A stretch of 64,000 nt of DNA from Balanoglossus misakiensis. Its lineage: Eukaryota > Animalia > Hemichordata. The notes under the pieces were generated by a model. The model saw nothing but the letters and a program-made list of their open reading frames with translations, was not told the origin of the DNA and did not search any database. A program made the position numbers and the translations under genes. The stretch covers positions 2,899,943 through 2,963,942 of the forward strand of contig CM082595.2 in the NCBI GenBank assembly GCA_040954595.2. The letters are read 5' to 3'. Shown here piece after piece: positions 7,501 through 54,112 of the stretch; the stretch's first letter is position 1; each line of letters begins with the position of its first letter.

Positions 7501-10500
7501 GAAATGCAATTTTACACAATTTTCAATGTGACATTTACAACAATATTTTCCCCAACACGTGATATTATAGTTATTGCCTGTATGGTGGTATCCAATTTAG
7601 GGTTAGGGATTTCCGTGGAGTTTTGTCGATGCCGGTAACACTTCTCATCAATTTTGATCTTGTCAGCATTTGAATTAAACATGACACGACTTGTTTCTAA
7701 TGCGATGACGGTCTCGCACATCAGGAGACAATGTTATTAACACAGTTCCTAAGGAAATGCGGCTATTACTCTGAATTCGCTATCGGAAATACATCCACAT
7801 TGGAATTGTTTATCTCACTCACTCTCAGGAATATAAATTCTTTTTCTTTCTGAATATTTAATGTACATTTATGAAATATTAACATCAGGGTATGCAATTT
7901 CTTTCACTATTAATTTTAAGAAATTCCCGAGGACAATAAATCATGAGAGAAAAAGATATGTTGCAGTGCTTTTACAGAATGATGCATCAGTTCAGATAAA
8001 TGCACCAAGACTATTTAACTTTGATATGATAGATAGCGTGCTGTGACCTTGACCGTTGGAGGTCAAAGGTCAGATTGTCTGGGGCTCGGAGACATGCCGA
8101 TTAGTATTCGTTGCGACACGCGAGTTATGTACAAGTTGTCCACGTGAAAATATTTGATAAGTGAATTCCATTAGCTGAAGGATATTGCTAGTGTTCAGTT
8201 GTGTGTTTTTAATCAGCTTTTTGTAAAAAGGAATATGAACTTCTTTCAAAATAAAGATGTGGAAATGTACCTTTGAGGTCATTGCCAGTCTAGTTTTTTG
8301 GTCCACATCGCAGTTTCAATGGATAAAGTCTCTTGCGGGCTTTACTAGTTCATTGCCTTTTTTGCTAGGTCATAGCTGTCAGTTTTCTGTCGTGACAAGT
8401 CCAAAGCTTTGTTCCATGTTTAATTGAAGGTGTAGGCAATTATAATATGCTTTGACGTGATGAATGTAAAGTGAGTCAGTGGGGGGAATTTGTAGGTGTG
8501 GCAGGCAGGCCTTGTCAATAGACAATGGAATTATTTAGCAGAGCAGTGTTGATAACGGCTTTGGTTGGGAATGTGCTTTTGCATTAACTATTCATTCCTC
8601 ATGTCTATTGGCACACGTTCTACCAAGAAAAAAATCTGTTTGGAATCCATTTTAAGGTTCATGGCTTGTACTTCAGTTTCTGACCGTGAACTCTTTCATT
8701 TAGAAAAAAATAATAATTGTGGTGATGTTTTGTGAATTACATTCCTGTGTACCATTGCGTGTATCCGTGGTTACGCTCAGTTTTCATCTTGATTGGCAGT
8801 GATAATGATAACTTGTCGTACAGTCATACGTCATCAAATACTTGACTGAGTTTTTTTTTTTTTGTCTCCCCAGAAGTTATTCAGCAGCTGCTGGTGGCCC
8901 ACAAGACGGCCACTACCGAATTCAATATCAGGTTGGTGATATTTTTTTTACTATATCATTGACCTGGTTTATCCTTATTCTGCCAAATTGGTTTGTGCTG
9001 AAGCAGGTAGTAAAAGTGACTCTTGGTCCAAACTTGAAGGATTTCTTACACATTTTTCTCTCCTACTCCAACTGCAGCAACAATTACCACCAAGACAACA
9101 TTCCCCAGCTCCTCATGATATAAGCAAGGGGCAACAACAGCCACAGTTGGCGCACACCCCACCACAAACAGTGTCAGCACCACAGCCGCCACAAGCAGCT
9201 GGAGTGGTGCCTGGGGCACAGCAGCCAATGATGCACGCTCACCACTATCAACCCAGGGCGCAGGTAAGATGACATTGCCTTAGCTTCAGACAGCGCATGA
9301 AACGGTAGTTCTGAGAAAATTCTGGAGTCATGATTTTCTGCACAGTGATGGGCACTTGTACTTGACTGCATAATACAAGGATGATAATTTGCTAGCAATA
9401 CTTAGCGTTTCTATTTTACTTCCTTCTGTAGCCATATTACCATCAACAACAACAGCAGCATCATCGCCAACACAGACCAACTGGGATGAGTATGCAAAGA
9501 CAAGTTGCACCACAATCTCAGCCAATGTACTCGACAAGTCCCGCTACACAAGTTATGCAACAGCAACCTCATCCACAGTATCAACAACAGGCGATATATA
9601 TACCACAGCAAACCATGAATGTAAGTAAAAATGCAGTTGTACATTTGCTCTGGGTTTGTGTCTAAAATTTCAGTCCTTGCTATGTGTAATTTTTCTCTGT
9701 TTACATTTGTACTTGTGATTGTCTTGAATGTGTATCTTAAGAATACATTGAAGTTAAAGGACCTTATGAAGAATGTTGTAAGTTTAGACTTGACCAATCA
9801 GTGTGCCTGTCAAAAAACTAGCCAATCACGTGTCGGGTTAGATATATGCAAATTTATTGTGTGAAAACAGCCAAGGATTGAGAGTCTGTCCTGAATAGTA
9901 CGGAATGAAAGAATGTATGTCTGTCTGGTTGAAAGGAATGCTGCAAAGCAAGGCACTACTTATACAGCCCCTCCATTTTAGCTCTCTAACCTTTGAACCT
10001 GACTAACCACCATGAAATTGATATCTTTGGAAGCTTAACATTCACTTCTCACAAGTTGGCAGACATTTTGTAGTCAGGGAGTCGAATACTGTCAAACCTC
10101 AGGCTTCTGATCATAGGAGAGTGAAAGCTATGGATATATTGTAATGAAATGCTATCGTTCTGTATCAACTTTGAGGGATAAATGTGAAGGGTAAAGTCCA
10201 GTGTGGCTGTCTTCAGTCTGTCAATAGAGGAAGCTGTCTGGCTAAAACATCGAGGGTTGGCTGCAAGCAAAATTTGTTCCATGGTTGAAGGCAGTAGTTG
10301 AGGTTTAACACTTGAGAAAATGATAAATAGGCCACCCTAATGTACAACAGAATGTTCTAGTTTCCAAGTGAATAATAAACTGTAATCGGGAAATTTCTCT
10401 GCATGAATTGTATTGTTCCAGTTCTGTGTCTGTGCACGAGCTTCATACTAAGCCCTCATTGCATCTTCTGAAAGCAAAAAAGAACCAGATTCCTTTTGTT

Positions 10501-13500
10501 ATCCAAAAAAACCACTAACTCTCAAGTTTCAAGTCTCCTTTTTTCCTCTGTATCTACTGTTAATATTCCTAGAATCCTGGTCTCTACAATGTCTCTGCTG
10601 AAGAGGGTTACAGTTTGTATATGACTAGCAACACTGCCAACAGCGGTCCAACTCATACAGTCTGGACATCGTCAAATGTACGTCTTTTGACTTGCCTATG
10701 TAATCGATTGATTTGGTGTCGTTGTGTGTCGAGTCTTGTCAAGCCGGTAGTATGTGACTTCTAGATGTCTTTCGCAGATGTTAATCCCCTTGGCGGGGAG
10801 TGCGTCTTAATGTTGCTTTAGTTGTAATTGCATCCTAGAGATCCCATCCCGTAAATGTCATGATCTGCTAATACCCAACCCTGGTCCCTCACACTTTGCG
10901 TTCATTTTAATACGTCAGTTTTGTCGGGAGCTTCTTGTAGGGCAAAGTTGGAGTGGGGATATCTCAGAACAGTTTTATTTCTGACCTGCAGGATCTTAAA
11001 ACTCGTTCAAAATATTTAAAATCAGTTTAGTGAAGTAGTCAACTTTCTGCAGGTCAGAGGTCAGGTCAGAGGTCACAAGCTTGTGCATGAGTTGGAGACT
11101 CGTAGATTTTAACGCTGCATGATTGCCTGATTTGGATATTGCATGCTTTGTATCTTGACCCTTGCTGTATTTGCCTAGATGACGCTGCTTCTTAGAAATG
11201 CTGCTTTCATATTAAAAATGAGTGATTAATCACCCCTTTCCGCGTAATGAGTGATTTTTATTGTTTTTTGTTGATTGTGAATTGTCCTGTCAAATTCAGT
11301 GTTTTCATGCGACGACAGTTCTCTGGACCATTTGAGGGGAGGGGTGGAAGGGTTGAACATGAAGATATCTTGGTGCTGATAAATTTCCTCCCGCGTAGAA
11401 TCCTTTATCATAACCTTTTCACCCCCTTCTGTGAATTGGTCCATCCACACAGTATGAAACATCAAAACTGGGCTCGACTATGGTGGTGAGAGGGGGGTTA
11501 CATTGTGAATCTAGCATGACAGCTGTGTGCCTACTCTTGCATGTAAAAAAATTGCATGGGCTCTATAACCATAAATGTGCAATGCCTTGATCAACTTTTC
11601 TATTTGACTCAAACCAGTGTGTAAATGCAAGTTAAGAACGGTTATACATGTGTCAAGTTTGAATGGAATGTTTTAAGAACTTGCCCTATTCAGCTGTGGA
11701 ATTCTGGATATGTAAGGGAGAGTCCATGAAATAAGCCACAAGAGTATGACAGGCTTTTATAGGAACAATCCTATGATGATATCAGTTTAGTTTTGTGTCA
11801 TGGTGCTTTTTTGTTCTTGGTTGTTCTCATGTGTAATGCAGCCACACCAGAAATGAAACTTGAACAAAATAGAGGTCAAGCATGTTTTTGTGGTTCATTT
11901 GTGTGGTCTTGTAAAAATTGAGTAGTTGCTATCAGTGACAAACAAATTTTATTTCTATTTTCGTAGTATCCACAAAGTGTACGACAAACCTATCAACAGC
12001 AGGTGCCTCAACAAGCCAGTGGGCAGTACATCGCTCCAAGTACGCCACCATATTACACCCAGTCCCCACCCGGCCCTAATCCTGGTAAGTAAACTGTTAA
12101 AATCACAAACTCTTGGATACATGTCCGCTGTGTGGTAATGGTTGGTAAGTCTAGTGCTACCATCGTCATAGTGATAACTGAAAATGGCCATGATTACACT
12201 CAAACAACGGCAATCTTGATGGTCTCAATATGCAACAAATATCCATCATGATAAAGCTTGCATGTGAACTTTTGATATAGGTGCAAATTTGCTTTTCAGT
12301 TGGAAGTACAGACAAAATACTTTCAATTTTACTGATCGTACATCCTTGTGTGAGAGGAACCCTTTGGTGTGCTTTGTGAAGCCTAGTGTTTAGATGTGTA
12401 GAGTGTTTTCCTTTCATGGTTTTTGTTATTTGTTTATTGTTGGTTTTGTTTGTTTATAGTTGGCCAACAAGCTGCACAGTCAGTCTCTGGCCAGGGTAAG
12501 TTGTGGCGTGTGTGTGCTGTGACTGGTGATGTGGTCATGGCTGATGTGTCTATGTTGTGCTGATGATGTATCACTCATCCTGGCCATGTATCTTGGTATC
12601 CATACAGTTGGCTATATCGTGTAATCCCAAAAGAGTTAATCCTTTGAATATAAATTGTTCGTAGGGAGTTGCGAAGGGGTGGTAGGCCTGGCCAGAAGTG
12701 TTAGAACACATGCACTGGTTTTGTCAAGGGTGGCATCCAAGTAAATGTTACCAGTGAGTCATTTTTCCAAGGTTCCTCTTAGTGTATCATGTTACTCTTA
12801 GCAGAAGTGTTTCTGGGATTCCCAAATTATTTACCAATGTGCCCCAACCTTAGCAAAACCACTGACAAGCCACATTTTCCGTCATGAACATTGGAAGGGA
12901 TTATACTCCGTGGTTCAGCCAAGATCATTCAGTATGAGCAAATACATCAGCATTAACATATCCTCTCTGTATGTGTGTGTGTGTGTATGAACATGCTAGT
13001 TAGCTGATACAGGTGTCTCGCTCTGTCCTGTGAACTAACAATGCTGATTCAGCAAAAAAGGGGAAACTGAGGCCACAGGATAATGTTTACATGTTTGTGT
13101 TCTAACAGGGTAATAGCTATGTATATGTTAACAGATTTTCTCCTAAGCAGCTGCTAAATCTGTATAGTTTCCCTATGCACACCCCTATTGCCTGTGTAGT
13201 GGTTTGATCCCATTGATGAGGGAATAATAGGATCAGTCTATTGCACAGGAAACGAAGGGGGTGTGCAAATAAAAATGAAAGTTGCAATAATGTATGTTAA
13301 GCTCTGATAACCACAGAACTGGAACGGGCTTCAATGGTGCTTCTAAGTACACATAACTTTCTTCTCTTTCTGTAATGCTTGTCACAGAGACTTGCATCAA
13401 ATATTTCAGTCGCAGATCAGTAGGATTTGCCGTATTGGCAACCTGTGGACATTTTTTTTACTAGAACTTGAGACATGCATTGCACCAGTGGTGTGTAGCA

Positions 13501-16500
13501 GTTGTACTTATCACTCAATAACAAACTTTCTTCTGCAAATTATTAACACTCTATACCTGCTCTCTCTCCCTCCCTCTTTTTTTTCCAATCTCATTCTCTC
13601 TCTCCTCATCCAGAATTTTTGTACTCGGCCGCAACAGGCTACTACGCGCCACCACAACAACAGCAGCCCATGCCCCAGCAGGTGCAATACAGACAACAGC
13701 AACAGACGTACGCGACGCAGCCCGTTCAACAGAGGACGTACGAGAAACCACCACAGCGGGAGAAAAAGCTGATCAGAATCACAGACCCCACCAAAGGTGT
13801 CGATATTACGGACGAGATCATGAAAAGCAGTGGGGGTAGTAACGTCACTACCGGTAACACTGCTACAGTCACACCGCCATTGTCTGGTCGGTCCAGCGCC
13901 TCTGGGACTCCACCCCAGGTAAGTGAAGAAAAGCATCACTGGTCTGTCACATACACACACACAAAACAAGGAACTTGCCATAAATTTAAACTCCAATAGG
14001 ACTTCAGTATTTCCCCAGAACAAGTGTTGAGGGTCTGGTTGACTGATGCTCTCTGTAGGCTGCACAAACAAAAGTAGCAATTTGCTATTGAAAGAAAACT
14101 TGCTACTAATTCTTTCTTCTTTTTTTTGTCATTTTTGATACAACGTTAGATTGGACAAGCATCAACTCCACCCCCACCATTACAGCAATCACAGAGTAAT
14201 TCCATCGCAGCGCAGTTCGCAGCTCAGGTTGCAGCAACTCTGGGAACGGCGACAGAGTCAGAAAATAGGACTACTACTGTTAAACAGCCGGCTGCAGTTC
14301 CGGAAACTGCGCCGGCCGAAGTGGAACAGCCACAGAGTGTCTCACCTCCAGTGGAGACAACAACGGAAGAGGAGCCGGAGAAGCCAGTGGAGGAACCCAG
14401 CAGTGTGCCGGAAATCACAGTGGTGCCGGAAAAGGAACCGGAAACTGTGGAGAGCGAGGATGTGCCTGCCGGGAAAGAGGAGGCAGAGGAGGAGGTGGTG
14501 GCTGCCACGGAAACGGACAGTAGTGCGAAACCGGATTTACAGGAAACAGTGCAAAATGTCGAGGAGAGTAAAACGGAGGAGGTTGTTGACCAGGAATCTG
14601 TGCAGCAACCTGTTGTGCCGCCTGCAGAGGACGCGAAAAGCGCCGCGGAGGAAACTGTGACTGAAATTCCCAAGGAAGTGACAGAGCCTGCGGTCGTAGA
14701 GGATACGAAAGAAACTGTGGTGGAGTCTGCTGCTGAAATAACCCTACGTGTCAGTGACAATGGGCCAAAGGTGGAAGAACCGTCTGAGGAAACCCCAAAA
14801 GAAGTGAAAGAGGAGAAAAAGGAGGAGGCGGAAATCAAGCCGACAGAAAACCAACCCGAAATAACAGTAACTGACACAACAGGTAAGAGATGTTCTTCAG
14901 TGCTGCACTTATGTACTGCTGTCTCAGGTTCACTGGTCACACCAGACAACAACAACAACATGCGGTACAGAAGCTAGCAAACAAAAGCTGTCAGCAGACA
15001 GTACTGTGTGTTCAATCTGGTCTTATTGTCTCATTTTAAAGAGTGTGTGGAGAGGGTGATATTAGGGAGAGAAGTATTTCTTCAAAGTGTCAGTCTGTCT
15101 CTTTTCAGTTAAAGAAAACAAGAAGATGTCAACAAAACAAAGAATGAAGGAATTGAACAAGAAAGGAACGGAGGACACAGACCTCATGGATGCATTCAAA
15201 GACAAAGAAGAGGTAAAAATTTATTCAATTATTTTGAAGCCACAAACTTCTGCCAACATTTATTGCTTGTTTTATATGCATTAAAACCTGTCTAATCTGG
15301 TAAACTGTTTATACCAAAACCATTTCCTGTCCCTTTGATATAGAACCACATGTTAAAAGTATATAAACCAGACACCTCTGCAATCTGTACTAAGACAATG
15401 ATATTCAATGTTTTTTTTTACCTCAATTTGGATATTTTCTTTCAAAACAGTCAACGAAAGAGGAACCAAGCAATGAGGATGCCACAAAGAATGAAGAAGA
15501 AAAAGAAAATGTCAAAGAAACTGAAGAAGTGGAAGAGATTCCTAAAGAAACAAACAAAACTGAAAAGACAGAGGAAGAAAAGCGAAATGAAGAAAATGAA
15601 AAGAAATCCAAGGAAGAGGAGAGTATAGACAATGGAGAAGTTCGACGTGATCCTAAGGACAATAAAATTGAACTCAAGTATAAATACAGGGAAGGTAGGG
15701 AAACGTCATGATTTCTGAAACAGCGATTTTTCAAATAATTCAAAATGAAAAAAATGTCACAAAAGTCGACAGGAATAAATATGATATGGGTCGTCAAAAT
15801 TGTTGATGGGTTTGTTAGAAAATATTTCTGTTTTTATTTCAGACCAATGGAGTCCGATCAACACAGAAGGAAAGAGACAATACGACAGGGATTTTTTGTT
15901 ACAGTTTCAATTTGAAGCTAATTGCATTGAAAAACCTGAAGGGCTTCCAAAAATAGCTGATGTTATATTAGACACGGTAAGTTGGTGTCCACCCTATATC
16001 TTTTGACATTTTGCCAATTTTAGCGATTAGCAAAGATGAAGGTGTAAAGTTCTAAGCGGGAGGCAGAATTAGAATCAGTTCCTTCTGTAGAGGTCCAATA
16101 CTACCATAGAAAATAATCAATTTGGACCAAACCATGATGGTGAAAGGGTTAAATGTGGGTATGCCGATTAATTCGTTTTCATTCATGATGGATATGTCTC
16201 ATTTATTCAGGTCCATGCTAAACAGCCCATGCGGGGAGGGCCACCAATGATTCCCGGCGGCATGATGGGTAACAAGACCACGGACTTCATGCCTGCGTAC
16301 ATGGGAGGAGGGAACCAGAAAGGCAAACAGGGTTATGTTCAAAGTAACAGGGGAGCTCCACAGAGACGATCCCAAAGGGGGGAACCACGGAAAATCATCT
16401 CCAGCGCCTCGCACGGAACAGAGATCAAGCTCAGAACTACGGACAATGCATGGAAACCTCCGACCAAGAAAACAGAAGCGAAGAGTGACGCTCCAGATAA

Positions 16501-19500
16501 GGCTGTCACAGAGGTCAGTCTTCTCCCAAGGAATTTCTTATTAAGTATTGGCTTATTCACATAACAATGTAAGCAATTGTTATGATAATGAAATTCTTTT
16601 GTATTCCCCCGATCATGAAAAGAGTGACAGAGGTCAGTCTTCGCCCAAGGAATTTCTTAAGAAGTATTGGCTAATTCACATTATACACATGATGACTGAC
16701 AATGAGGGGAACAGTGAATTTTGATGTCCGAGGGCGCTGCTAGTCACAACTAAAACAGTCTTGTTTTCCCGAGGGCATAGCCCGAGGGAAAACAGACTGT
16801 TTTGGTGTGACTGACAGTCCCGAGGTCATCTAAAATACACTGTTGCCCGAATATGTCAGTTATCATGTGTTTTATAACACACCAAACCGATCGAACTGAT
16901 GCCCTAGGGAACAGTTCGAAACATGGTGTGTTATAAAACAATATGATCAGTTATGATAATGAAATTCTTTTGTATTCCCCCAAACGTTAAAAGAACATTG
17001 GTTTTCTGGAGGGAACACTGGAGGTGAATATGCTGTTGCTAATTTTTGATATTTCATCAATTACGTATCACACACTCCTGTTAGCTTATAAAAGCTTATT
17101 AGCTTGTTAGCTTATGGAGTTCTTTACCCAACTGTTTTTCATGTCAATGCCTTCACACTGTTTCTGCATTCTGTAGGACCTTTACAAGAAAGTGACTGGT
17201 ATTCTGAACAAGCTTACACCACAGAAATTCCAGACACTCACGCAGCAAGTTTTAGATCTTCCCATCGACACAGAAGAAAGGCTCAAGGGTGTGATTGATC
17301 TGGTCTTTGAGAAAGCCATCGGTGAACCAGGGTTTAGTGTAGCCTATGCAAACATGTGCAGATGTCTCATGTCGGTAAGTCCTCTGTCTGTATCTTTTGG
17401 TTGCATTATCTCAGCAAAATATAGACCAGAGATGTGATAAGTCAATCTTAAACATCTCTTAGCTCGATCATGTCATGTAACCGTAAGTGACTGGATCAAT
17501 ACTTTTCTTCTTGCAGATGAAGGTTCCCACAAATGATGGCAAAGGCAATGTCAACTTCCGTAAGCTGCTGCTCAATAAGTGTCAGAAAGAATTTGAGAAA
17601 GATAAAGATGAAGATAATGAGATGGAAGCAAAGAGAAAGGCACTTGAACAAGCTGAAACGGTTAGTAAAGATTTTTGAGATTTTCCCGTTGCAATTCGAA
17701 GTATTAACCCAAGCAAAACACAGCAGGGTTAAGTTGACTTGTGCTGATGGGAAAATCTTGCTGATTTACAGGAAGAAGAACGAAAAGAGAAGAAAGAAGA
17801 ACTCGAAATGTATGACACCAAGATGAGGAGGCGGTCTCTTGGTAACATCAGATTCATCGGAGAGTTGTTTAAGCTGAAGATGTTGACAGAACCAATTATG
17901 CATGATTGTGTTGTCAAACTTTTGAAAGCTCATGACGTAGAGTCTCTGGAATGTCTCTGTAGACTTCTTGCAACAATAGGAAAGGACTTGGACCACGAAA
18001 AAGCTAAGGTAATTTGGGCAGAAGTTTCCCATGTCAGTTTTCCTAAACCATAATTTTTAAAAAGTGGTTGAAATAATTTTTGTGCAACCAGCAGTGACAA
18101 GTATATTGAGCAACATTTTTGAGTATTACAGGGAACGTGTGCATTGAAATCTTCGAGTGAGTAATGTCAGTCTCATTTCTACAAACCTATTGGTTTATTT
18201 TCTCTTTGCAGCCAAGAGTTGATCAATACTTTGCCCAGATGGACAGAATTTCCAAGTCTAAGAAGTACTCTTCCAGGGTTCGGTTTATGCTGCAAGATGT
18301 GATTGAACTACGAGAGGTAGGTTGAGACAATTTTCGCCGTTGAAAAATCAGTTTTTGTCACTAATGGCTAAATTCACGGCCAGATATTTCATCGTACATG
18401 TACATCCTTCGGCTGACAAATTGTGTGATTTCCTGTGTCCCTTCAGAGTAACTGGGTCCCAAGACGAGATGAGAACAACCCCAAGACTATCGAACAGATC
18501 CATAAAGAGGCCAAACTTGAGCAGGAACAGTCACTCTTACTTGCACATCAACAACCTCAGCAAAACAAGAGAAGTCGAGGTAGGGGAGATAGGCAGGGAC
18601 AAGGGCAAGGGCAAGGACAAGCAGACGACGGTTGGAGTATGGTTTCCAGTACGAAGAGCAGGCCTTCTTTTGATCCCAACAAATTTAAAGTAACAAAGGT
18701 AAGATACTAAAAATGTGTACTGAAGTGATTATTTACCTCTGATCACATTGTGGTTTCCAAGGTGTTAATGGAATAGAACTGGACAAATTTAATTAACCTT
18801 TTCAACATCAGATCCCCCCTCTATAGAGGTCCAAGTTTACCATAGAAAACTATGACTTTGAGAGGGGTATGGTGGTGAACATATGCCCATATGTGAAAGG
18901 GTGTGTCTGCCTTCAAATGGTCGTGTGGTGGAGCTTTATCATGTGGCCACCCTCTGAAAATATCACAGGCTAGATCTCGACTAGCAAGCAGTCATCTTGG
19001 TGACTGTGGCATTAGGTGACAGTATACCTTTAACGGAAATGCATTATTTTGTACACACAGCAAACTGTGGATGAAAACATTCAACTTGGTCCAGGTGGTA
19101 GACCAGGTGGTGTTTTCGGTGGCTGGGGCCGCGGAAGTAGTGGAGGCACTGGAGGCAAATCGCAGCAAGAGCAACAAGAATCCCGACCTGCACCGGCAAA
19201 CAGATTCCAGGCTCTGGCATCCGGTGAAACGCAGCCGTATGACTCGTCAAGGAGAGGATCAAGGTATGGACAAATGTCCGGAATTAAAGGGACAAAGTCT
19301 CTCTCTCGCTGCCCTTTTTCCATTATGTTTGATACAAGACACTGTTTATGTATAAATGTACATGTGTATATGCAGTGAATGAACATTCAACCACACACAA
19401 CTTCCATCCCGCTTGTATGATATGAGAGTAAACTTGCCCATAATGAATAAATGGCAGAGACTGGACATGTATTGTCCATTTTAAATGAACGTACAGTAGT

Positions 19501-22500
19501 ATATTATGTGCAGACAGCCAAGTGTGTTAAACCATTGAAAGCCACATATGTGACAATGTGTGTAAATGTTGCCATGCAGGGAGATTGGTCGAGGGCGTGA
19601 TAATAAGGGTGGCAGACAGCTGAGTGGTCCAAGAAGATCCACATCCAGGGAAAGCGGCAGAGATGGGAGAAACCGGGAAAGAGAAGAAGCTATCGCAATT
19701 GCCAAGAATTTATCGTCCTCCCAAGCCCTGGCTGACAGGAACAGAGAAAGAGGTGAGGGTCATGTTTTGTATTATTTTTGAGGAGAGGTTTTTGTTGTGT
19801 ATTTTGGGTTTGTAGGAGAATGTTTTGGGGCAGGATCTTTACAGTTTGTCTTTTTCGAACTTCAGCCAAGACACCAGAGCCAAGAGCAGCGACCCCACAA
19901 CCGGCAGAACCCAAAGCTGTGCCCAGTGACATATCGGAAGAAGCCATGGAGAAGAAATCCAAGGCAATCTTAGAAGAATTCATGCATCTCAAAGACTCGA
20001 GGGTAAGGACAGAACTCCTTCCATTGTTTCAGACATCCAAATTTTTTATATCAAACCGTTGTGCGTGATCGTGCTGTAAATCCCAGTCAGTGAGAATTTA
20101 ACGGAGGAGCCAGCAGTAACTGTTGCCAAAGCAAACATTACAGTTCCAGGAACACTCCATCCTTATTTGGATATTTGATCTCGTTTCTTTACAGGAAGTT
20201 CACGCTTGTGTTTCTGACCTCAATGCACCACGGATGATGTACATCTTTGTGAGGATAAGCTTGGAGCAGACCTTGGAGAGAAACGAGTCGACAAGACAGT
20301 CGTGTGGTGCACTCATGTATGATCTAATCAGAGATGGCAAGCTTGAAATACAACAGTACAACAAAGGGTAAGTTACAGATATTATCCAGTGCCTGCACTT
20401 TCCAGTTTGTGTTTTAACCCTTTCATCCCCAGTTCCCACTTTAGAGGTCCAACATAACCCATAGAAAACAACGGATTTGGACCAAACAGTGATGGTAAAA
20501 AGGTTAACTCACTGAAACACGCTAAATGTCTAGTTGTTACAACTTGATTCTCGCTCTGTACATGGGTAAAATATTACAATTATACTTCTTACAGGATAAT
20601 TATTGTTATTGACCAAAAACTGAATCGTACAAGGTGTTAATATTATTGTCATGTTCATTAAATTCCAGGCTTGCTGAAATCCTTGAGTATGCTGAAGACA
20701 TGGCTATTGATATCCCCAAATTCTGGACATACGTTGGGGAATATATTGCTCCTCTGGTCCAGAGTGGTAAAATCCCGATGACCGTTCTTAAAGACGTCAC
20801 GAAGCCGTTGCTTGAAATTGGAAAAGCGGGACATCTCATTGCAGAGGTGCTACTAGTGGCTACCAAAATAATAGTAAGTCTCGTGATCTTTGTAAATCAT
20901 TGTAAGTGTGGTCTGATATTGCTGTGGTTCTGCTTTTGTGGCCGTGATGTTTGTCATGCAAAAAAAGATAAAAGGATCTTGTTCTTGTGGGAATTCCTGG
21001 AAAGTCCTTTTATGATCAGGAAAACTTCCCTCTGATCCAAGGGAAGAGAATTCATTTTTTCTCACTTGTTTGAGTTGTGTTATGGCTTTTTGTGGTGTAT
21101 CAGTGATGGGTTAGTTCAATTTTATCCTCCATTTTTTCAGGGCGAGGCTAGAATTGCTGAACTCTGGCAAAGTTCCGGAATGGACTGGAGTAGTCTCTTG
21201 CCTGCCGGAGAAAATGTAAATGAGTTCCTGGAAAGGAAGGTGAGGAATCCTACACAGTTATTATCCATGTGTGAAGCAAATGTCTAAGTATATCTGTAAC
21301 TACACTCACGGCGAGGCTCCAGATGGGTGTAGCGCCCTCGTTCAATGGCCGACTTGCATCTCTAAACAATGGCGACCGTCGATGACCTTAGCAACCTGTA
21401 CTTCTGAGGACAACAATGCATTGCGGCTATGATGTCATCGCCACCTTTATGCAAGTCGGCCATTGTAGGGAGACAACTTCCTCTTATTACCAACTCTTAC
21501 GAGAACCTTTGATTTTTCTTCCTTCCCAGGGTTTGTCATTTACAGCCCCAAGTTCAAGTGGCAGTAGAAGTAGTCAAACTACAAATGTAGGAATGTCAAT
21601 CGAGCAGATTCAGAATCACTTGGAACATTTACTACTCAGAGAGAGATCCCCAAATGACAAGATTTTTGACTGGATTGAGGTGAGTGTACAGATGTGTACA
21701 GTACTCATTGGGCATGTTTGCGTATAATACCACTGAGATCAACGTAGTAGGAATGATATCATAAGTGTAATCAGATGTAGATTCAGTTAACGAATATTTG
21801 TGGTTTTTGTTTTTAGGCCAATGTTGTTGCAGAGAGAAGAAAAGATGCTGATTTTATTCGTGCCTTGATGACAGCTGTGTGCCAAAGTGCAGTGTCAGGT
21901 AAGGATTTGGGTTTCACAAAAGAAATAATAGTATATCGGAATTTGAAATTTGATTTTCATGGCGCGCACTACCTTTGTGTAATTTTGCTGAAATCTTTTT
22001 TTCGTCTGTAGGGGAAGGAAGTGCCTGTCGCTGTGAAATCAACGAAGTCAAGAACAGAGCGACTGTCCTGCAGAAATATCTTGATAATGATGACAAACTA
22101 GAATTACAAGCTTTGTATGCATTACAGGCCTTAAATTATAAATTAGATAGTCCACCAAGTAAGTACTTAGCTGATTTATGTATTGTGTGATAATTAATAA
22201 CTTAAGTGAATTAAAAGATTTTTGCTGATACTTTCGTCAACCATATAAACTGGATTTTTTTATGGTTTTTCGTTATTGTTTAAATTCTTTTGATATGTTT
22301 GTATGTGACTCTAATTGCTTTAAGACTCTGGGCTGGAATAGACTCAAACTGATTCCTAATTTCCCTTCATTTCAGGTTTACTGCGTATATTTTTTGATAA
22401 GCTTTATGACGAAGACGTGATCTCGGAAGAAGCTTTCTATGCATGGGAGAAAAGTGACGATCCGAATGAACAACAAGGAAAAGGTGTTGCACTCAAGTCT

Positions 22501-22554
22501 GTCACTGCGTTCTTCACATGGCTACGGGAAGCTGACGACGATTCTGCAGAATAG
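1599..22554 (+). CDS. EIF4G: Eukaryotic translation initiation factor 4 gamma (eIF4G1/3 type), full length
   Basis: Hand-spliced GT-AG exons keep frame: 1599-1672, 8874-8931, 9078-9263, 9432-9620, 11967-12084, (12460-12495 cassette), 13614-13918, 14150-14882, 15109-15212, 15451-15694, 15843-15976, 16211-16513, 17177-17374, 17517-17660, 17772-18008, 18212-18316, 18447-18698, 19061-19263, 19580-19752, 19866-20002, 20195-20367, 20669-20873, 21141-21239, 21530-21679, 21817-21898, 22012-22158, 22376-22554 (TAG). Motifs: PABP-binding [22 protein letters not shown]; eIF4E-binding YDRDFLL (15881-15901); MIF4G ([26 protein letters not shown]); MA3 ([15 protein letters not shown]); W2 ([18 protein letters not shown]...FFTWLREA). 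The N-terminal exons are less certain than the core. Confidence 0.96.
4828..4921. mobile_element. About 90-bp piggyBac-like MITE (TTAA|CCC...GGG|TTAA), representative copy of an abundant family
   Basis: Terminal inverted repeats TTAACCCTTTCACC / GGTGAAAGGGTTAA. Further full or partial copies lie near 16075-16152, 18792-18901, 20414-20506, 31169-31260, 40014-40050, 42438-42528, 48781-48873, 49601-49665, 51321-51390, 55225-55314, 59343-59440 and 61977-62067. Confidence 0.85.
16684..16942. mobile_element. Palindromic MITE-like insertion in an eIF4G intron, inside a local duplication
   Basis: Nested inverted repeats (AAAACAGTC...GACTGTTTT; TTATAACACACCA...TGGTGTGTTATAA). Flanking sequence TATGATAATGAAATTCTTTTGTATTCCCC occurs at 16581 and 16952. 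A related inverted copy lies at about 62601-62678. Confidence 0.6.
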
Positions 22555-27784: not shown

Positions 27785-30700
27785 ATGGCGTCTGCAGGTG
27801 AATCGGACGACGATGGCGATAAGTCGCTGAAAGAAGAACTACTAACATGTCAACTTTGCTTCGAAATATACAAGCTGCCGAAATTGTTGCCATGTCAACA
27901 CACGTTCTGCGAACATTGTCTCGAGCGATGGGTGGACACTAATCAGGGAAGACTGATTTGTCCGTGCTGTCGTCAACTTGTTACAATGTCGCCCGAAGAT
28001 GTTAGGGGACTACCAGCGAATCGAGTGATTGGAAGTTTTTTGGACTTTCTTGTTAATCGCTCGAAGGCTAAACGTGATACTGAAACAGGTTTGCGATGTG
28101 AAACGTGTCCCAAGAATGCTGACAATCGCTGTGTAGAGTGCGCGCAATATCTCTGTACCCGCTGTCGTGATGTTCATAGCAAGGGGAAACTGACTAAAAT
28201 GCACAGGGTGTTGAGCGTCGAAGAATTTGACGAAGAGAGACTGACGAATCCAACTATCGAGCAACCGTCTACATACTGCGAAAGGCACGTAGACTCACCC
28301 ATTGAAGTTTATTGCAAAACGTGCGAAGTGTGTGCCTGCGTCAAATGTGCATTTTCGGATCACCCAAACCCAGAACATCACCACATCTCTGTTGACGATG
28401 CTGCTGTCGAATTAAAAGGTGAATTCGAGAACTTCGTTCAGCGACTTGAAAACTGCCGAAAGCAAACGCAAGCCGGTCGGTCTGTTGTGACGAAAGAACT
28501 TATTGAACTGGAGAAGCACTTCAAGAAAGGAATAGAAAACATAGATAAACACGTTGAAGAAATTATCAGAAATGCGCAGACGATGCAACGAAAAGCGAAA
28601 GAGGACTTCCGACATGCTTTCGAAGCGAAAGAAAAGGTTCTGAAAACTCAAATACGGAATTTAGAAACTAGAGAAAATTCCTTGGCGAACACGAGGGAGT
28701 TTGCAGAAATGCAAATAAACTCTGCTCAGTTTTTGTCGTTAGAAAGTGAAATGAAACAGCAAATTGAAAGCATTATCTCGACAGAGGTGAACATGGAACC
28801 CGAAGAAAACAATTTCTTGGATTTTGAAGTACAAGGCAGTCCTGATGTCGATAATTTCGGAGAAGTTCGCACAAACTCGGCCGTTTATTTCAGTTTATAT
28901 GAGAGAGTGAGTATTTAGGCTAATTTATGTAAAAATAAATAGTCCTCAATATTAAGCAAGCTGTGTTCTTGAGTTCGTCTTCCAAAACGATTTGTAGAAT
29001 TCATATATTTATTTTAGATACAACTTTACCATGCAGTAAAATTCCTTTTTGAACAAGACTGCATGTTCTTTGACTTGTCTACACCAAAAAATACAAATGA
29101 AAACACTCTTTAAAGTTCGGCTTTTTGAATTTTCTGCATTTTGTTCTGGTAACTTCTTTGCTTCTGTCAAATGCAGTCACACACAGAGACGGGAAAGACG
29201 TCAGGAGTGGCTGACCAAGATAAAGCTCGATGTGAACCTGAGGTCAACAAAGTACAGTTAAAGTACAAATACAAGGAAGGTGAGCGACACTGTTCAACCT
29301 TAGTAAAAGGATAGGCCAGGGATTAAGTAATGAGAAAAAAACACGAAGTCTGTCAAAACTGAACACCACTTCTCTGTTTATAAACACACCACTGAAGCAA
29401 TCAACTCAACAGAAACATTTTCCATTCCAGGTCAATGGAGTCCGATTATTACATGTGTGAAGTTGGTTACTAGTTACTAGTTCCTGGTTCCTTATTGGGT
29501 TTCCTACGGCCTGGCTAAGCTGATGCCCCGGCACTCTAGGGACCGTTCAGTTTTTACGGCCTTGGGGGGGGGGGGGGGTGGCAAGTTTGAGTCATCGGTT
29601 TTCAAAATCAGGCGGACCCCCCCCCTTCACCCAGGACCAAAACATGATGATCCCCCCCCCCACCTTTGAACAAATTGAAATGACAAGTCAATACAATAGT
29701 TGCTAGAATTGGTAAAACAAGAAAAGTGGCGGGGGGTGGGCGGCAAAATCCAGGGGGGGGGGGTCACTTAAATTTTGAAGTCCAAAAGGGGGGGGGGTCA
29801 TCTGGGGTTTTTAAACGTTTAGGGGGGGGGCACATACTTTTGCCACCGAACTTTTGCTTTTGAGTCCACAAAATTGAGTTGCAGTTTCGCGCCTTTTATT
29901 TTACAAACTTTTCTAATGTGGGAGGGGGAGGGGACACCCCCTCCCACACCCACCCCCTTCATTCTCCACCACATTTCATTTTTTTGCTGGTTTGTCCAGT
30001 GTACCAGAGCAGAGTGCTTGCCACCCCAACCCCACCGATGATAATATTTAACAAAGTAAATACATAAAGGGGAATAATCGTTTAAACCATTTCGCATAAC
30101 TAATAGTTTCGCGATGCTTCTTGTATATACTAGAAGTTTTATAAATGATGTCATGACTAACATGACGCCAAATCTGCTAACTTTGAGTGGATAGGCAAAA
30201 AGTAAAATTGGTCCTCCCAAACATTGAGATAATTTGCTTTTGAGTTCATTAAAATGCAACTTTGAGCTACATATTTTACAAAATTTTCCACCCCGCCACT
30301 TTTCTTGTTTTACCAATTCTAGCAACTATTGTATTGACTTGTCATTTCAATTTGTTCATAGATTTCTTTATTGCAACGAAGTACTATTATATACTATAAT
30401 ACTTCAATAATACTTTAAGAAATTTATAATTGAGGTGTGAGGAGCCTCATTCCCTTTATTGCATACAGTGTACATAGGATCAGGACGGCGAATGTTTTCG
30501 GCGTGGGGGGGGGTCATCATATTTTTGGGTCTGTCAGAGGGGGGGGTCATCATTTTTTGGTCCTGGGTGAGGGGGGGGGGGGCGGCCTGATTTTGAAAAC
30601 CAATGACACAAACTTGCCCCCCCCCCCCCCCGGCCGTAAAAATTGAACGGTCCCTTAGAATGGGTGAAATGTGTTATTTTGAATACGGAACAAAATCAGG

Positions 30701-32926
30701 AACTGGGAACTACCTGCATATTCAGATTGAATCGAATAAGGAACGAGGAACTAGTAACCAACTTCACACACCTTTAATACAGAGGGAGAAAAGAAATACG
30801 ACAGAGATTTTTTGCTGCAATTTCAGTTTGATCCCCTGTGTATACAAAAACCTGAAGGGCTTCCAAAAATAGCTAATGTCATATTAGACTCGGTAAGTTT
30901 TTTGATATATTGCCAATTGTAGTGATAGTAGCCTGGCCCCAGACCAGTGTGTAGAATTTCTATATATCTAAAACACACTGGTCTGGGGCCGGGCTATAGT
31001 GATAGCAAAGATGTAGCAAAATTTAGAAATTCGCGGAAAGTTCCAAATGGGAGGTAGAATTAATACATTAGATTGTCACTGATTTTTTTAAACTGTAGTT
31101 AGTTAACAAAGCGGGAACATTGATTTGTGTTGAATTGTTTTACCTCTGGTAGGATATATGCTGTTGTCTTAACCCTTACAGCTTCAGTTCCCTTTGTAGA
31201 GGTCCAATACTACCATAGAAAAAATCAATTTGGACCAAACCATGATGGTGAAAGGGTTAAATGTGAGTTTTCATTCATGACGGATATGTCTCATTTATTC
31301 AGGTCCATGCTAAACAGCCCATGCGGGGAGGGCCACCAATGATTCCCGGCGGCATGATGGGTAACAAGACCACGGACTTCATGCCTGCGTACATGGGAGG
31401 AGGGAACCAGAAAGGCAAACAGGGTTATGTTCCAAATAACAGGGGACCTCCGCAGAGACAATCCCAAAGGGAACCACAGAAAATCATCTATAGCACCTCG
31501 CAGGGAACAGAGATCAAGCTCACGGAAAGTGTAGCAAAACCTCTGACCGAGAAAACAGAAGCGAAGAGTGCCTCTCCAGATAAGCCTGTGACAGAGGTCA
31601 GTCTTCTCCCAAGGAATTTCACCACCAGTTTGTTCTATGGAAGTCCAAATTTTTACCATAGAAAACAATAACTTTGACGGGGGCATGGTGGTGAAGATGT
31701 GTCCATAATGGTTGAAAGGGCGTGTTTAATCTTCAAATGAACATGTGTTGGTGCTTTTTTTCAATACTTAGCGTTTCTATTTTACTTCCTTCTGTAGCCA
31801 TATTACCATCAACAACAACAGCAGCATCATCGCCAACACAGACCAACTGGGATGAGTATGCAAAGACAAGTTGCACCACAATCTCAGCCAATGTACTCGA
31901 CAAGTCCCGCTACACATGCAGTTTATAATGCAGTTATGCAACCGCAACCTATACCACAAAAAACCATGAATGTAAGTAAAAATGCATAACCTCCAAAGCC
32001 CACCATTCACCTCTTACAAGTTGGTAGCTGTAATACCCACATATTTGAGGAGTCAACATGGATAAATTCTTCAATTCGATATTTTCTTTGCAAAGCATAG
32101 AAAGAGATGGGATGGGTTGATCAGCTGCAGGTAAATAAAAGAAATTGCATGGAAATTATTGTAAAATTTAACATTTTAAAATTTATTAGGCTAGCTCAAA
32201 ATAGCTACATACTAACAATAGCTTGTAGTGTCAATCTGCACAACGCAGCCATGTCAAGTCTGTCAATAGATGGTGTTGTCTGGTGGCTAAAACATCAAGG
32301 GTTGGCTGCAAGCAAAACTTGTTTCATGGTTGAAGGCAGTAGTTGTGGTTTAACACGAGTAACATTTACTATCTTTGACAAATTTTGTTTCTATTTTCAT
32401 AGTATCCTCAAAGTGTGCGACAAACCTATCAACAGCAGGTGCCTCAACAAGCCAGTGGGAAGTACATCGCTCCAAGTACGCCACCATATTACACCCAGTC
32501 CCCATCCGGCCATGGTAAGTAAACTCTTGGATACATGTCCACTGTGTGGTAATGGTTGGTAAGTCTAGTGCTACCATCATCATCATGATAAACACAATTA
32601 GAAGTGATTGTACTGCATGGTTCAGCCATGATTATTCTGAGTATGAGCATTTTCATTGGCATTAACATATCCTCTCTCCTCATCCAGAATGTTTGTACCC
32701 GGCCCCAACAGGCTACTACGCGCCACCACATCAACTAACATACGCGACGCAGCCCGTTCAACAGAGGACGTACGGGCAACCACCACAGCGGGAGAAAAAG
32801 CTGATCAGAGTCACAGACCCCACCAAAGGCGTCGATATTACGAACGAGATCATGAAAAGCAGTGGGGGTAGTAATGTCACTACCAGTAACACTGCTTATG
32901 TCACACCACCGCTTATCTTACTCTAA
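27785..32926 (+). CDS. TRIM-B: chimeric RING / B-box1 / B-box2 / coiled-coil protein fused to duplicated eIF4G exons (eIF4E- and PABP-binding motifs)
   Basis: Exon 1 is 27785-28906 (MASAGESD..., RING CQLCFEIY...CPCCR, two B-boxes, coiled coil; donor AGA|GTGAGT). It is followed by 29177-29279, 30783-30892 (cryptic acceptor; the native acceptor at 29431 runs into a transposon), 31303-31596, 31798-31971, 32403-32514 and 32688-32926 (TAA). All phases match: 2154 nt, 717 aa. The TRIM exon is certain; the full splice model is a prediction. Confidence 0.72.
29454..30770. mobile_element. Non-autonomous DNA transposon inserted inside the duplicated eIF4E-motif exon
   Basis: TIRs TGTGTGAAGTTGGTTACTAGTT (from 29454) and AACTAGTAACCAACTTCACACA (to 30770), with extended subterminal similarity (TTCCTTATT / AATAAGGAA). 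It splits QWSPI..T from TEGEKKYDRDFLL. Target duplication is imperfect (ATTATTACA / TTTAATACA). Confidence 0.88.
29539..30654. mobile_element. Nested Harbinger-like non-autonomous element with long G/C-run-rich inverted repeats
   Basis: CTA|GGGACCGTTCAGTTTTTACGGCC ... GGCCGTAAAAATTGAACGGTCCC|TTA. It also contains an internal inverted repeat of about 68 bp (29669-29736 vs 30291-30358). The superfamily call rests only on GGG termini and 3-bp flanks. Confidence 0.75.
30929..30996. mobile_element. 68-bp palindromic MITE with a perfect 9-bp TSD (TAG...CTA termini, AcademH-like)
   Basis: TAGTGATAG|TAGCCTGGCCCCAGACCAGTGTGT...ACACACTGGTCTGGGGCCGGGCTA|TAGTGATAG. It is absent from the matching eIF4G intron (about 16010-16040). 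A related end lies at about 63524-63568. Confidence 0.8.
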
Positions 32927-33524
32927 GTTCTAGTTCTGAGAGTGAAGAAGATTGGTAACCCATCTTTCACATTCAATATGTTCAGAGTTTCACAGTGTTG
33001 TAGGGAGTCGATGAAAATTTAATTGAAGTTGGCAAATTGAGTTATAATCAGTGCTGAAAAATGCCTTGCTGCTATCATACATGTACATGTGGAATATTTG
33101 TACCTATATTGACATCCAATTTGGTAAAGTCTTCCGGATACCAACAAATGTTCATGAAATGTGCAAATTACCATTAATTAGCAAGAGACTTCAAAACATC
33201 TCTTCTTATTGATGTACAGTAATGTCCTCAAGGTTATCGTGTCAAAAACTTATATTTATTCCAGAGACAAAATACACTCGGCCAAGATACATATGTTTTC
33301 ATGAATTTTTTTATTGGGATTTCTTACTGGTGATGGTTAATTTTCAACTGAAATTTTTTTATCTATCAAAGAATTGTCACATTACTCCACACTTGACTTG
33401 AAAATAGACGGCAACGAGAGACGAACAGACAACTCAAGGAGTCTCTCTGTAATCGACAGAGATCAGAAACGTTCTCTCTCAGCCTCAAAGAAGACATTTT
33501 CACAGGCGCTACTTTTGCAGTCTT

Positions 33525-41963: not shown

Positions 41964-42770
41964 ATGTTCGAGGCGTTCAAATCATTACCGACACACATGG
42001 TGAGTATAGATGATTGCGACTTTTTTGGACCAGAGACGATGGAAACTGTGATGTAACCCGGCCTCCTGTTATTTTAGCATGCTTCAGTTTACTAGAGTGA
42101 CGTGTCTTTACAGTTTACAGTTACATGTATGTTTTCTTTCTACGTTTCAGGACTACAAAGGACAGAAACTGGCAGAACAGTTGTTCCAAGCAATCATACT
42201 AGTTTTTGGTGTAAGTGTCCTTTCTCCAAGTCGAAATTCGCTGGACTTTGCCAGTAATAAAAACTACAGCCTCACACGTTTATATTGTATTGAGAAAGTA
42301 ATGAGTTTGAGCCAGTTGACAACAAACCTTTTTATCATTTTCAGGTTGTAGGTTTTCTATGGGGATATATATGCGAACAGTTTGTCCAGACGATGTATGT
42401 CCTAGGAGCAGGTTTTGTTTTGTCATGTTTGGTAAGTCAACCCTTTCACCACCATGGTTTGCTCCAGTTCTGTTGTTTCGTATGGTAAAGTTGGACCTCT
42501 GCAGAGGGAACTGGGGTGAGAAGGTTAAACTTTGAGTGTGTGTAATCGCATATGTTACTGTAGGTTGTAGGATGGTGCTTGCGATGAATAATGTGATGTA
42601 GTTTGATTTCAACTGGCATGTCTTGTTCATTCCAGTTGACCTTACCTCCATGGCCAATGTACAGAAGAAATCCACTGAGTTGGCAGAAACCGCGTCCGGA
42701 AGAAAGTACAGATGAAGACGGAAAAGATAAAGACAAAAAACAACAGAAAAAGAAGAGTAAAACAAAATAA
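41964..42770 (+). CDS. SPCS1: Signal peptidase complex subunit 1 (SPC12)
   Basis: Exons 41964-41999, 42151-42210, 42345-42431 and 42636-42770 give [45 protein letters not shown]...LTLPPWPMYRRNPLSWQKP...*. Confidence 0.96.

Positions 42771-54036: not shown

Positions 54037-54112
<76 letters not shown>

Follow-up and report, generated by a model that had tools for sequence, protein, structure and literature searches.

TRIMCyp proteins are the classic example of how a ligase can acquire a host factor on which viruses depend. Published accounts describe TRIMs whose C-terminal domain gave way, repeatedly and independently, to a host protein used by viruses (PMC3137616, PMC6677749); the class takes in TRIM5-cyclophilin A of owl monkey and macaques, rodent TrimCyp and zebrafish ftr52 RanBD/CypA. 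In plant NLRs with integrated domains, an immune scaffold recurrently gains host proteins targeted by pathogens (PMC5819176, PMC9528084). In the window, the whole 64,000-nt stretch of Balanoglossus misakiensis DNA analysed here, the TRIM has acquired parts of eIF4G, a hub bound or cleaved by many unrelated viruses. Norovirus VPg binds HEAT-1 of eIF4G and FMDV L-protease cleaves eIF4G (PMC4848598), and influenza NS1 and PB2 bind it (PMC8117317).

Like zebrafish ftr52, the TRIM-eIF4G copy in the window arose at the DNA level with several exons. Unlike TRIMCyp, its captured partner is a translation scaffold, of which paralogues carry different parts, permuted in the window copy, and the donor eIF4G gene adjoins the copy and appears to convert it. 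Whereas primate TRIMCyp took cyclophilin A by retrotransposition, eIF4G was captured with intron remnants. The window chimera is not a TRIMCyp but, by analogy, may work like one. This analogy, drawn in a sequence-only reading of the locus, was strengthened by the recurrence of annotated TRIM-eIF4G fusions in acorn worms, amphioxus and fishes, which also gives firmer backing to the chimeric architecture itself. The likeness to plant NLRs lies in an immune-type scaffold recurrently acquiring pathogen-targeted host proteins; the difference is that here a TRIM ligase of animals, with a putative decoy role, provides the scaffold.

The chimera also resembles competitors of the 4E-BP1 type, further examples of which are 4E-T, Cup and Mextli, in having a canonical YxxxxL-phi motif with its adjoining segment and no ribosome-recruiting core. 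It differs from them in having taken its motif over from eIF4G and in combining it with a RING ligase and a PABP site. The eIF4E-motif exon matched 4E-BP1 chains weakly (E 0.7-0.9).

Architecture and origin of the copy

When the seven predicted exons (Table 1) were joined, they translated as a single 717-aa frame with one stop. AG/GT was present at 12/12 internal splice sites and the end phases (0,1,0,0,0,1) were compatible, bearing out the in-frame seven-exon model of the sequence-only reading. Against background, eleven of the twelve sites ranked beyond the 94th percentile. The phase-0 donor of exon 1 reached 6.3 bits (97th percentile of all GT) and exon 2 has a strong acceptor of its own (8.7 bits). 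Matches of relatives to exon 1 in tblastn ended at 28885-28891.

Table 1. Features of the TRIM-eIF4G copy and its parent gene in the window
Feature	Position	Strand	Basis or remark
Parent eIF4G gene, source of the copied exons	8874..22554	+	24 exons from 9432 on = 1549 aa, one frame
Exon 1: TRIM RBCC; RING 22-62, B-box1-like 105-142, B-box2 162-201, helical region	27785..28906	+	Pfam, translation
Read-through stop (28916-28918) and AATAAA at 28934	28907..28939	+	possible RBCC-only isoform, 377 aa
Exon 2: diverged, shortened copy of eIF4G exon 15451-15694; ends LKYKYKE	29177..29279	+	76% over 59 nt
5' part of the eIF4E-motif exon, left stranded together with the natural acceptor	29431..29449	+	stop after 16 codons, reading into the transposon
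Transposon, non-autonomous DNA type with terminal inverted repeats, at TTAA within the eIF4E-motif exon	29450..30773	.	sequence
Exon 3: eIF4E-binding YDRDFLL and downstream PEGLP segment	30783..30892	+	5t46_B, E 4.9e-9
Exon 4: hinge rich in G/R, copied from 16211-16513	31303..31596	+	comparison with parent; no difference in the first 128 nt
Permutation junction, where remnants of two eIF4G introns (18820-18937, then 9396-9431) meet	31634..31797	+	
Exon 5: copied from 9432-9620, an N-terminal eIF4G exon rich in Q/H	31798..31971	+	comparison with parent
Exon 6: Q/P/Y-rich, copy of 11967-12084	32403..32514	+	comparison with parent
Exon 7: PABP-binding motif, copy of 13614-13878	32688..32926	+	1lj2_C, E 0.0036

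The predicted product begins with the RING, B-boxes and helical region, and its eIF4G-derived part occupies the position at which TRIMs normally have their C-terminal domain. The RING (PF00097, 32.4 bits against a cut-off of 21) has all eight C3HC4 ligands, from which ubiquitin-ligase activity can be predicted. B-box2 was recognised as PF00643 (34.2 bits, cut-off 24.1) and B-box1 only by a sub-threshold match to PF22586. The region after the B-boxes had no TRIM_CC Pfam match and aligned unbroken to TRIMs of Ptychodera flava and Glandiceps.

In the eIF4G-derived part, the eIF4E- and PABP-binding motifs are both intact. Searched by itself, the 36-aa eIF4E-motif exon gave no Pfam match; in the PDB comparison it matched human eIF4G1, and the last exon matched the eIF4G peptide 4f02_C (E 1.4) as well as 1lj2_C. 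In 28900-33500, nothing was found that copies the parent exons at 17177-18698 or any later exon. The chimera is thus not an eIF4G, as the MIF4G (HEAT-1) core, MA3 and W2 are missing. Also missing is a filamin domain, which the P. flava and Glandiceps relatives have, a point absent from the sequence-only reading. That reading also lacked the permuted order of the copied exons relative to eIF4G. Exon 7 is cut off ahead of the parent's donor and a new stop closes the frame.

The copy was made by an intron-bearing duplication at the DNA level. Retained intron remnants rule out a retrocopy, and an assembly artefact is ruled out by the mean divergence from the parent (7-8%), the permuted order and the copy's own insertions. 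Exonic length changes relative to the parent (-3, -6, +15, -30, -6 and -42, the last being two adjacent gaps of 26 and 16) preserved the frame in 6/6 cases, as the sequence-only reading had claimed, whereas only 1/9 intron gaps was divisible by 3. A +1/-1 compensating pair at 30788/30795, 7 nt apart, was taken as an alignment artefact and left uncounted. The claim of heavily deleted introns likewise stood: the N-terminal segment retained 572/648 exon nt but only 361/3875 intron nt.

Fusions in acorn worms, amphioxus and fishes

The TRIMs closest to exon 1 were RefSeq TRIM-eIF4G models, comprising five P. flava genes (XP_070561622.1, XP_070561578.1/579.1, XP_070561580.1, XP_070561582.1, XP_070560292.1) and one of Glandiceps talaboti (XP_077990018.1). 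Among long or near matches to exon 1, such models made up 5/5 at E<=1e-20 and 1/1 at E<=1e-30. Like the copy, they join eIF4G exons to a TRIM, their TRIMs belonging to its subfamily (51-60% identity), and XP_070561622.1 shares the permuted order, with the eIF4E region first and the N-terminal exons and PABP site last. Unlike the copy, they retain the filamin-type domain, and MIF4G, MA3 or W2 persists in some of them. Their automatic names are uncharacterized, TRIM2-like or eIF4G3-like. XP_070561620.1, two accession numbers from XP_070561622.1, grouped with the window's second TRIM (99/97).

Jointly, the five P. flava genes span approximately 84% of eIF4G, with parts corresponding to aa 4-247, 495-959, 951-1164, 1033-1549 and 1364-1479 of the 1549-aa parent model. 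Four of the five parts begin at phase-0 exon boundaries. The eIF4E motif is missing from 3/5 genes; as a 4E-BP-like function would need it, this counts for a role as bait.

Gene models of amphioxus and several fishes also contained unrelated TRIMs with eIF4G domains, the acorn-worm and amphioxus members all being gene models. RBCC and eIF4G parts occurred together in 13/150 representatives. The TRIM halves belong to different TRIM subfamilies, the fish fusions lying among finTRIM-type B30.2 TRIMs or labelled TRIM39-like. An Atlas cluster held 71 chordate MIF4G/TRIM-CC proteins; the match scored 0.91 for the carp protein and 0.82 for P0003, which we treat as a lead only. The smelt-type P0044 is an 843-aa ORF on a 2888-nt assembled contig and so probably a spliced transcript.

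Fusion MIF4Gs mostly grouped with the eIF4G of their own lineage (SH-aLRT 99 for P. flava/window, 99 for amphioxus, 91 for milkfish, 90 for icefish and 98 for Coilia, with eIF4G3). The carp fusion was unpaired with carp eIF4G1 in a quick tree but paired with it at 90/96 in a careful one. A single clade of fusion MIF4Gs was rejected (AU test, p-AU 9e-85) on 7 fusion MIF4Gs and 11 other rows, 18 of 32 rows being kept. P0002 and P0005, whose degenerate MIF4Gs were too long-branched to place, were left out, as were P0044, P0011, P0033 and several eIF4G rows. Recurrent independent origin is therefore shown between lineages only, because of conversion within acorn worms. Capture of eIF4G by TRIMs thus appears to have occurred several times across deuterostomes. 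We found no description of TRIM-eIF4G fusions in the searchable literature, and database names of the kind 'eIF4G-like' or 'TRIM39-like' conceal them.

Bait, regulator or decaying copy

We give an even chance to recurrent, TRIMCyp-like capture in which the eIF4G-derived tail acts as a bait, drawing in viral proteins by which eIF4G is bound or cleaved. A segmental duplication would have brought exons of eIF4G to a position 3' of a TRIM exon with a phase-0 donor. As eIF4G is rich in phase-0 exon boundaries, different parts would have been available to different paralogues. Later deletion would have removed most of the copy's intron DNA, and gene conversion from the neighbouring eIF4G may keep refreshing it. 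Dimerisation through the coiled coil is established for TRIMs, and a putative coiled coil would here dimerise the tail. Binding of a multivalent ligand or a translation complex of viral origin could then cluster the RINGs, and ubiquitination would destroy the viral target or signal, as with TRIM5/TRIMCyp. The window copy would expose the hinge together with the sites for eIF4E and PABP; having no eIF4A/eIF3-binding core, it could not itself drive translation.

The sequence-only reading had offered bait and translational repressor as options, and family composition favours bait, since most fusions carry MIF4G or other parts. Branches of fusion MIF4Gs were longer than those of their parents (0.23 against 0.03, 0.18 against 0.03 and 0.16 against 0.04), which relaxed constraint would explain no less well than an arms race. 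We put forward more tentatively that at least five deuterostome captures (acorn worms, amphioxus, carp-type, finTRIM-type eIF4G1, finTRIM-type eIF4G3, smelt-type) gave rise to undescribed restriction factors with eIF4G decoys. The acorn-worm panel beside eIF4G would tile nearly the whole scaffold and be kept host-like by conversion, so that a virus could not evade it without losing its grip on eIF4G; the window gene would be the member with PABP site, eIF4E site and hinge, rescued after the transposon by a new acceptor. If bait is the right reading, TRIM-eIF4G genes are animal integrated decoys against viral translation, and the eIF4G part of each fusion would map surfaces attacked by past viruses. 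The fish members (carp, milkfish, smelt) allow tests in existing cell lines.

We think it rather unlikely, though the best of the alternatives, that the fusions are host-directed translational regulators. A dimeric ligase would compete with eIF4G for eIF4E and PABP and ubiquitinate them or their mRNPs, and other paralogues would act on eIF4A, eIF3 or Mnk. The canonical motif and its downstream segment do match the eIF4G1 peptide of 5t46, and the eIF4E exon is the sole part of the copy clearly short of replacement changes (pS 0.51, pN 0.125 over 36 codons; pN/pS 0.25). A tail kept host-like by conversion would also bind host eIF4E and PABP, which fits such a role. Both motifs occur, in the order eIF4E site then PABP site, in the window copy, P0002 and milkfish P0022, the last of which has the PABP site six times. 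The cap-plus-tail bridging ligase of the sequence-only reading fits these three but not the family: among the 150 representatives, a canonical eIF4E motif was present in 4/13 fusions and the PABP motif in 1/13. Rapid birth, divergence and lineage-specific tiling would also be unusual for a housekeeping or developmental regulator. Such a regulator could be an induced antiviral shut-off, and so is compatible with bait; if true, the fusions would be natural eIF4E/PABP/eIF4A-directed degraders.

It is improbable that the family is real but the window copy is decaying. The locus would then make only the RBCC protein, or splice to the 29431 acceptor with nonsense-mediated decay, or skip exons 2-3, giving 646 aa and no eIF4E motif. 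The transposon, which we take to be Kolobok-like, is approximately 1.3 kb long, with an inverted-repeat element nested inside it at about 29538-30655. As the transposon splits the eIF4E-motif exon, the chimera depends on a cryptic acceptor at 30783, whose upstream tract lies in the transposon end; the caveat to this effect in the sequence-only reading was upheld. What that reading missed is that the natural acceptor at 29431 survives upstream, scores higher (5.4 against 3.9 bits) and leads to a stop. However, the cryptic acceptor (88th percentile) outscores 3/24 acceptors of the parent, and no donor above 3.1 bits lies near the natural one.

Decay is made possible by the AATAAA after exon 1 together with neutral-looking divergence. 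The hexamer occurs at 0.75 per kb on the copy's strand; neither AATAAA nor ATTAAA occurs between 32927 and 34596, so the caveat of an absent poly(A) signal also held. Most copied exons diverge as if neutral. Aligned exons and introns differ similarly from the parent (7.2% and 8.2%), and this comparison does not separate selection from neutrality. Pooled dN/dS was 0.54 (302 codons), about as expected for a neutral copy and uninformative because the parent is constrained; in the hinge exon pN (0.079) exceeded pS (0.060). Five of nine in-frame exon-skipping forms lack the eIF4E motif. The nested transposon in a coding exon and the loss of filamin and MIF4G point the same way and, with the AATAAA after the read-through stop and the neutral-looking divergence, also count against bait for the window copy. 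On the other side stand the intact, mostly high-scoring splice sites, the in-frame indels and the sparing of exons whilst introns were deleted. The exact exon-1 read-through protein was absent from the protein collection searched. The sequence-only reading did not have the AATAAA at 28934, just 3' of exon 1.

It is very improbable that all fusions are gene-prediction joins of TRIM genes with nearby dead eIF4G fragments: most members are automatic models and long fish TRIM models joining several genes were common in the P0022 search, but P0044 is uninterrupted and sister to the RefSeq smelt model in both halves (96/99 and 100/100), several RefSeq isoforms exist in amphioxus (X3, X5, X7) and P. 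flava (X1, X2), TRIM-CC is present in 97% of the 71-member cluster, and the MIF4G copies of P0002 and P0005, diverged as far as 24-28% identity, keep open frames. By precomputed domains, RING and MIF4G occurred together only in the query itself among the 120 matches listed in the P0022 protein search. That search was dominated by ordinary eIF4G and multi-copy finTRIM models.

Structure and setting of the chimeric gene

The seven-exon TRIM-eIF4G model of the sequence-only reading held on recomputation, with AG/GT at all 12 internal splice sites, phases 0,1,0,0,0,1 and one 717-aa frame ending in a single stop. Exon 1 encodes a RING and a B-box2 above Pfam cut-offs. For the third exon (eIF4E motif) the match is to human eIF4G1 in PDB 5t46 (peptide chain, E 4.9e-9), and for the last exon (PABP motif) to the eIF4G peptides of 1lj2 (E 0.0036) and 4f02 (E 1.4); the partners bound in these structures are eIF4E, rotavirus NSP3 and PABP, respectively. 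The nearest proteins to the TRIM exon are from Ptychodera flava (58-60% identity) and Glandiceps talaboti (51%), levels that point to an acorn worm, though probably to neither species. Gene order is eIF4G (+), minus-strand TRIM, chimeric TRIM, phenylalanyl-tRNA synthetase beta (-) and, farther on, XRN1.

Features of the window and their positions
Feature	Position	Strand	Remarks
eIF4G parent gene	~8874-22554	+	complete; 24 exons from 9432 on give 1549 aa in a single frame
Second TRIM	27157-24729	-	between eIF4G and chimeric TRIM; exons 27157-25922 and 25598-24729
Predicted chimera	27785-32926	+	includes exon 1 (27785-28906), exon 2 (29177-29279), eIF4E-motif exon (30783-30892), hinge exon (31303-31596), PABP-motif exon (32688-32926)
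Ordinary neighbour genes	33400-38300, 40600-41050, 43480-45600, 46900-61600	-, -, +, +	downstream phenylalanyl-tRNA synthetase beta and XRN1 (Pfam); glycosyltransferase-8-like and class C GPCR-like (labelled by eye; single exons tried gave no Pfam match)
~90-nt repeat	4828-4921, 16076-16152, 20414-20507, 31168-31260, 42439-42529, 48781-48873; also at 49600, 51320, 55224, 59343, 61979	both	at least 11 copies; dispersed, likely a MITE

The minus-strand TRIM, head-to-head with the chimera, is itself a second predicted chimera of ~701 aa. Its RING/B-box2 exon ends in a GTAAGT donor and is predicted to splice in frame to an exon that encodes poly-Q and S/T-rich repeats, with an RNF34/ARMET-type SAP-like domain at the C-terminus (PF22968, E 4e-9).

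Exonic length changes relative to the parent had been described as frame-preserving, and 6/6 keep frame versus 1/9 intron gaps that are a multiple of 3, a count somewhat weakened by triplet slippage in Q-rich tracts. The introns are indeed heavily deleted: the N-terminal segment keeps 572/648 exon nt versus 361/3875 intron nt of the parent. The middle segment represents 493/1617 exon nt and 292/1870 intron nt, its low exon retention reflecting loss of the MIF4G exons.

The copied exons are permuted, parent 15451-16513 coming first and 9432-13878 second, and at the junction what is left of intron 18820-18937 runs directly into intron 9396. A 1.3-kb transposon with terminal inverted repeats interrupts the eIF4E-motif exon at a TTAA site, and a second inverted-repeat element is nested within that transposon. 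With a scoring matrix derived from the 24 acceptors of the parent (themselves scored leave-one-out), the natural acceptor, still present at 29431, scored 5.4 bits and the cryptic acceptor at 30783 scored 3.9 bits, above 3/24 parent acceptors. Reading in from 29431 ends at a stop 16 codons on, and none of the donors near that acceptor exceeds 3.1 bits. Use of the cryptic acceptor in splicing is plausible. The exon-1 read-through stop (28916-28918) is followed 16 nt later, at 28934, by an AATAAA; as previously cautioned, none closely follows the chimera stop, the next being at 34596.

TRIM-eIF4G genes in acorn worms

The longer matches of exon 1 (5/5) and the near-length match (1/1) are all TRIM-eIF4G models. 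In P. flava, five of these genes share one 47,284,028-nt contig and carry eIF4G aa 495-959, 951-1164, 1033-1549, 1364-1479 and, for XP_070561622.1, 4-247 preceded by a degenerate 707-948 (parent model numbering). Together they span ~1300/1549 aa of the parent (84%, hand-summed), and four start at eIF4G phase-0 exon boundaries (aa 496, 951, 1035 and 1365). The permuted order of the window copy recurs in XP_070561622.1. The window's minus-strand TRIM groups with P. flava XP_070561620.1 (support 99/97), suggesting the same locus, for which the positional evidence is the closeness of accession numbers; the tail of that model differs. The one Glandiceps fusion carries a degenerate MIF4G together with a W2 domain.

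By Pfam and comparison with its relatives, the window copy lacks the filamin-type domain present in them. The residues VYFSLYER, which close exon 1 (28880-28906), resemble RVYFAESSTE, with which the filamin-bearing part of P. flava protein P0001 ends. From this likeness, one may speculate that the domain was lost in frame with the donor kept.

Fusions in other animals

With protein P0003 as query, a phmmer search of 1.84 billion representatives listed 150 proteins; Pfam was run on 33 of them and names were obtained for 18. RBCC parts occur in 14 of the listed matches, and eIF4G parts accompany them in 13, including the query and four acorn-worm relatives. The others are from amphioxus (LOC144883967, three isoforms in its cluster), carp (a 9-member cluster), milkfish, Coilia and icefish, together with two MIF4G/coiled-coil proteins and P0044, an ORF on a short contig. 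A smelt fusion model belongs to a listed cluster. Milkfish P0022 (XP_030632685.1) joins a finTRIM-type RBCC, an eIF4E motif and MIF4G to six tandem PABP-binding motifs; the longest contig for it equals in length the one for milkfish eIF4G1 (P0199). In the ESM Atlas, 71 chordate proteins form a cluster in which 100% have MIF4G and 97% a TRIM coiled coil, possibly the carp protein's own cluster (score 0.91 with the carp query).

In MIF4G trees the P. flava, amphioxus, milkfish, icefish and Coilia fusions pair with eIF4G1 or eIF4G3 of their own lineage, for Coilia only in the quick tree; carp shows such a pairing only in the careful tree. Forcing seven fusion rows together cost 262 log-likelihood units (p-AU 9e-85), the group being set by domain content and the test run after the first tree was known. 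Different subfamilies are represented by the TRIM halves, the amphioxus branch being long and unsurely placed. We infer from these trees several independent captures of eIF4G by TRIMs.

Seven further proteins (P0008, P0010, P0017, P0019, P0039, P0059 and P0063) carry two to five tandem MIF4G domains without a TRIM part, examples being eel XP_035254761.1 and pitcher plant KAL6981371.1. These may be further decoys derived from eIF4G, or else errors in the gene models.

Fusion models are already present in RefSeq/UniRef under automatic names, and the Atlas cluster likewise bears an automatic name. A literature search brought up no account of TRIM-eIF4G or TRIM-MIF4G fusions; supplements of repertoire papers and subscription journals, outside its scope, might list the architecture. 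The main text of the zebrafish/pufferfish TRIM repertoire paper contains no MIF4G, eIF4G or 'initiation factor', and the paper describes CypA capture by ftr52 (PMC3137616). TRIMs are known to capture domains; what appears new is eIF4G as the partner, together with the tiling and the recurrence. Interest rests mostly on this recurrent family and less on the window's own copy, whose splicing is predicted.

Possible roles and the state of the window copy

TRIMs dimerise via the coiled coil and select targets through their C-terminal region, and their RINGs become active when clustered. The fusions could form a panel of baits for viral proteins, each displaying a different eIF4G part. Viruses engage eIF4G at many sites by binding or cleavage: norovirus VPg binds its HEAT-1 and FMDV L-protease cuts it (PMC4848598), and influenza NS1 and PB2 bind it (PMC8117317). 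We give the bait role about an even chance. A host-directed repressor or degrader, compatible with baiting, seems rather unlikely: the parts differ, evolution is fast and only 4/13 fusions among the listed matches have a canonical eIF4E motif, features that a bait panel fits better than one conserved repressor. The chimeric gene model of the sequence-only reading stands, with its repressor option now ranked below its bait option.

It is also doubtful that the window copy is simply decaying inside a genuine family. It differs from the parent in a patchy way, with 128 nt of the hinge exon identical and the exon-2 and eIF4E pieces 76-82% identical, a mosaic that we interpret as an old copy repeatedly overwritten by gene conversion. 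Versus the parent, pS is 0.51 and pN 0.125 in the eIF4E exon (36 codons), and in the hinge exon pN exceeds pS. Pooled dN/dS is 0.54 (302 codons versus parent; Fisher p 0.009), no better than expected from a neutral copy of a constrained parent. The eIF4E exon ends ANVILDS, as in P. flava fusion P0006, and its own parent has ADVILDT; this may be a small sign of common ancestry, with the window's own eIF4G as the reference. Within the family the copy is reduced and perhaps weakened, its splicing predicted. Since both motifs are intact, the full form, if made, would likely bind host eIF4E and PABP.

A pure annotation artefact is highly improbable; P0044, whose 843-aa ORF lies on a contig of 2888 nt, probably represents a spliced transcript.
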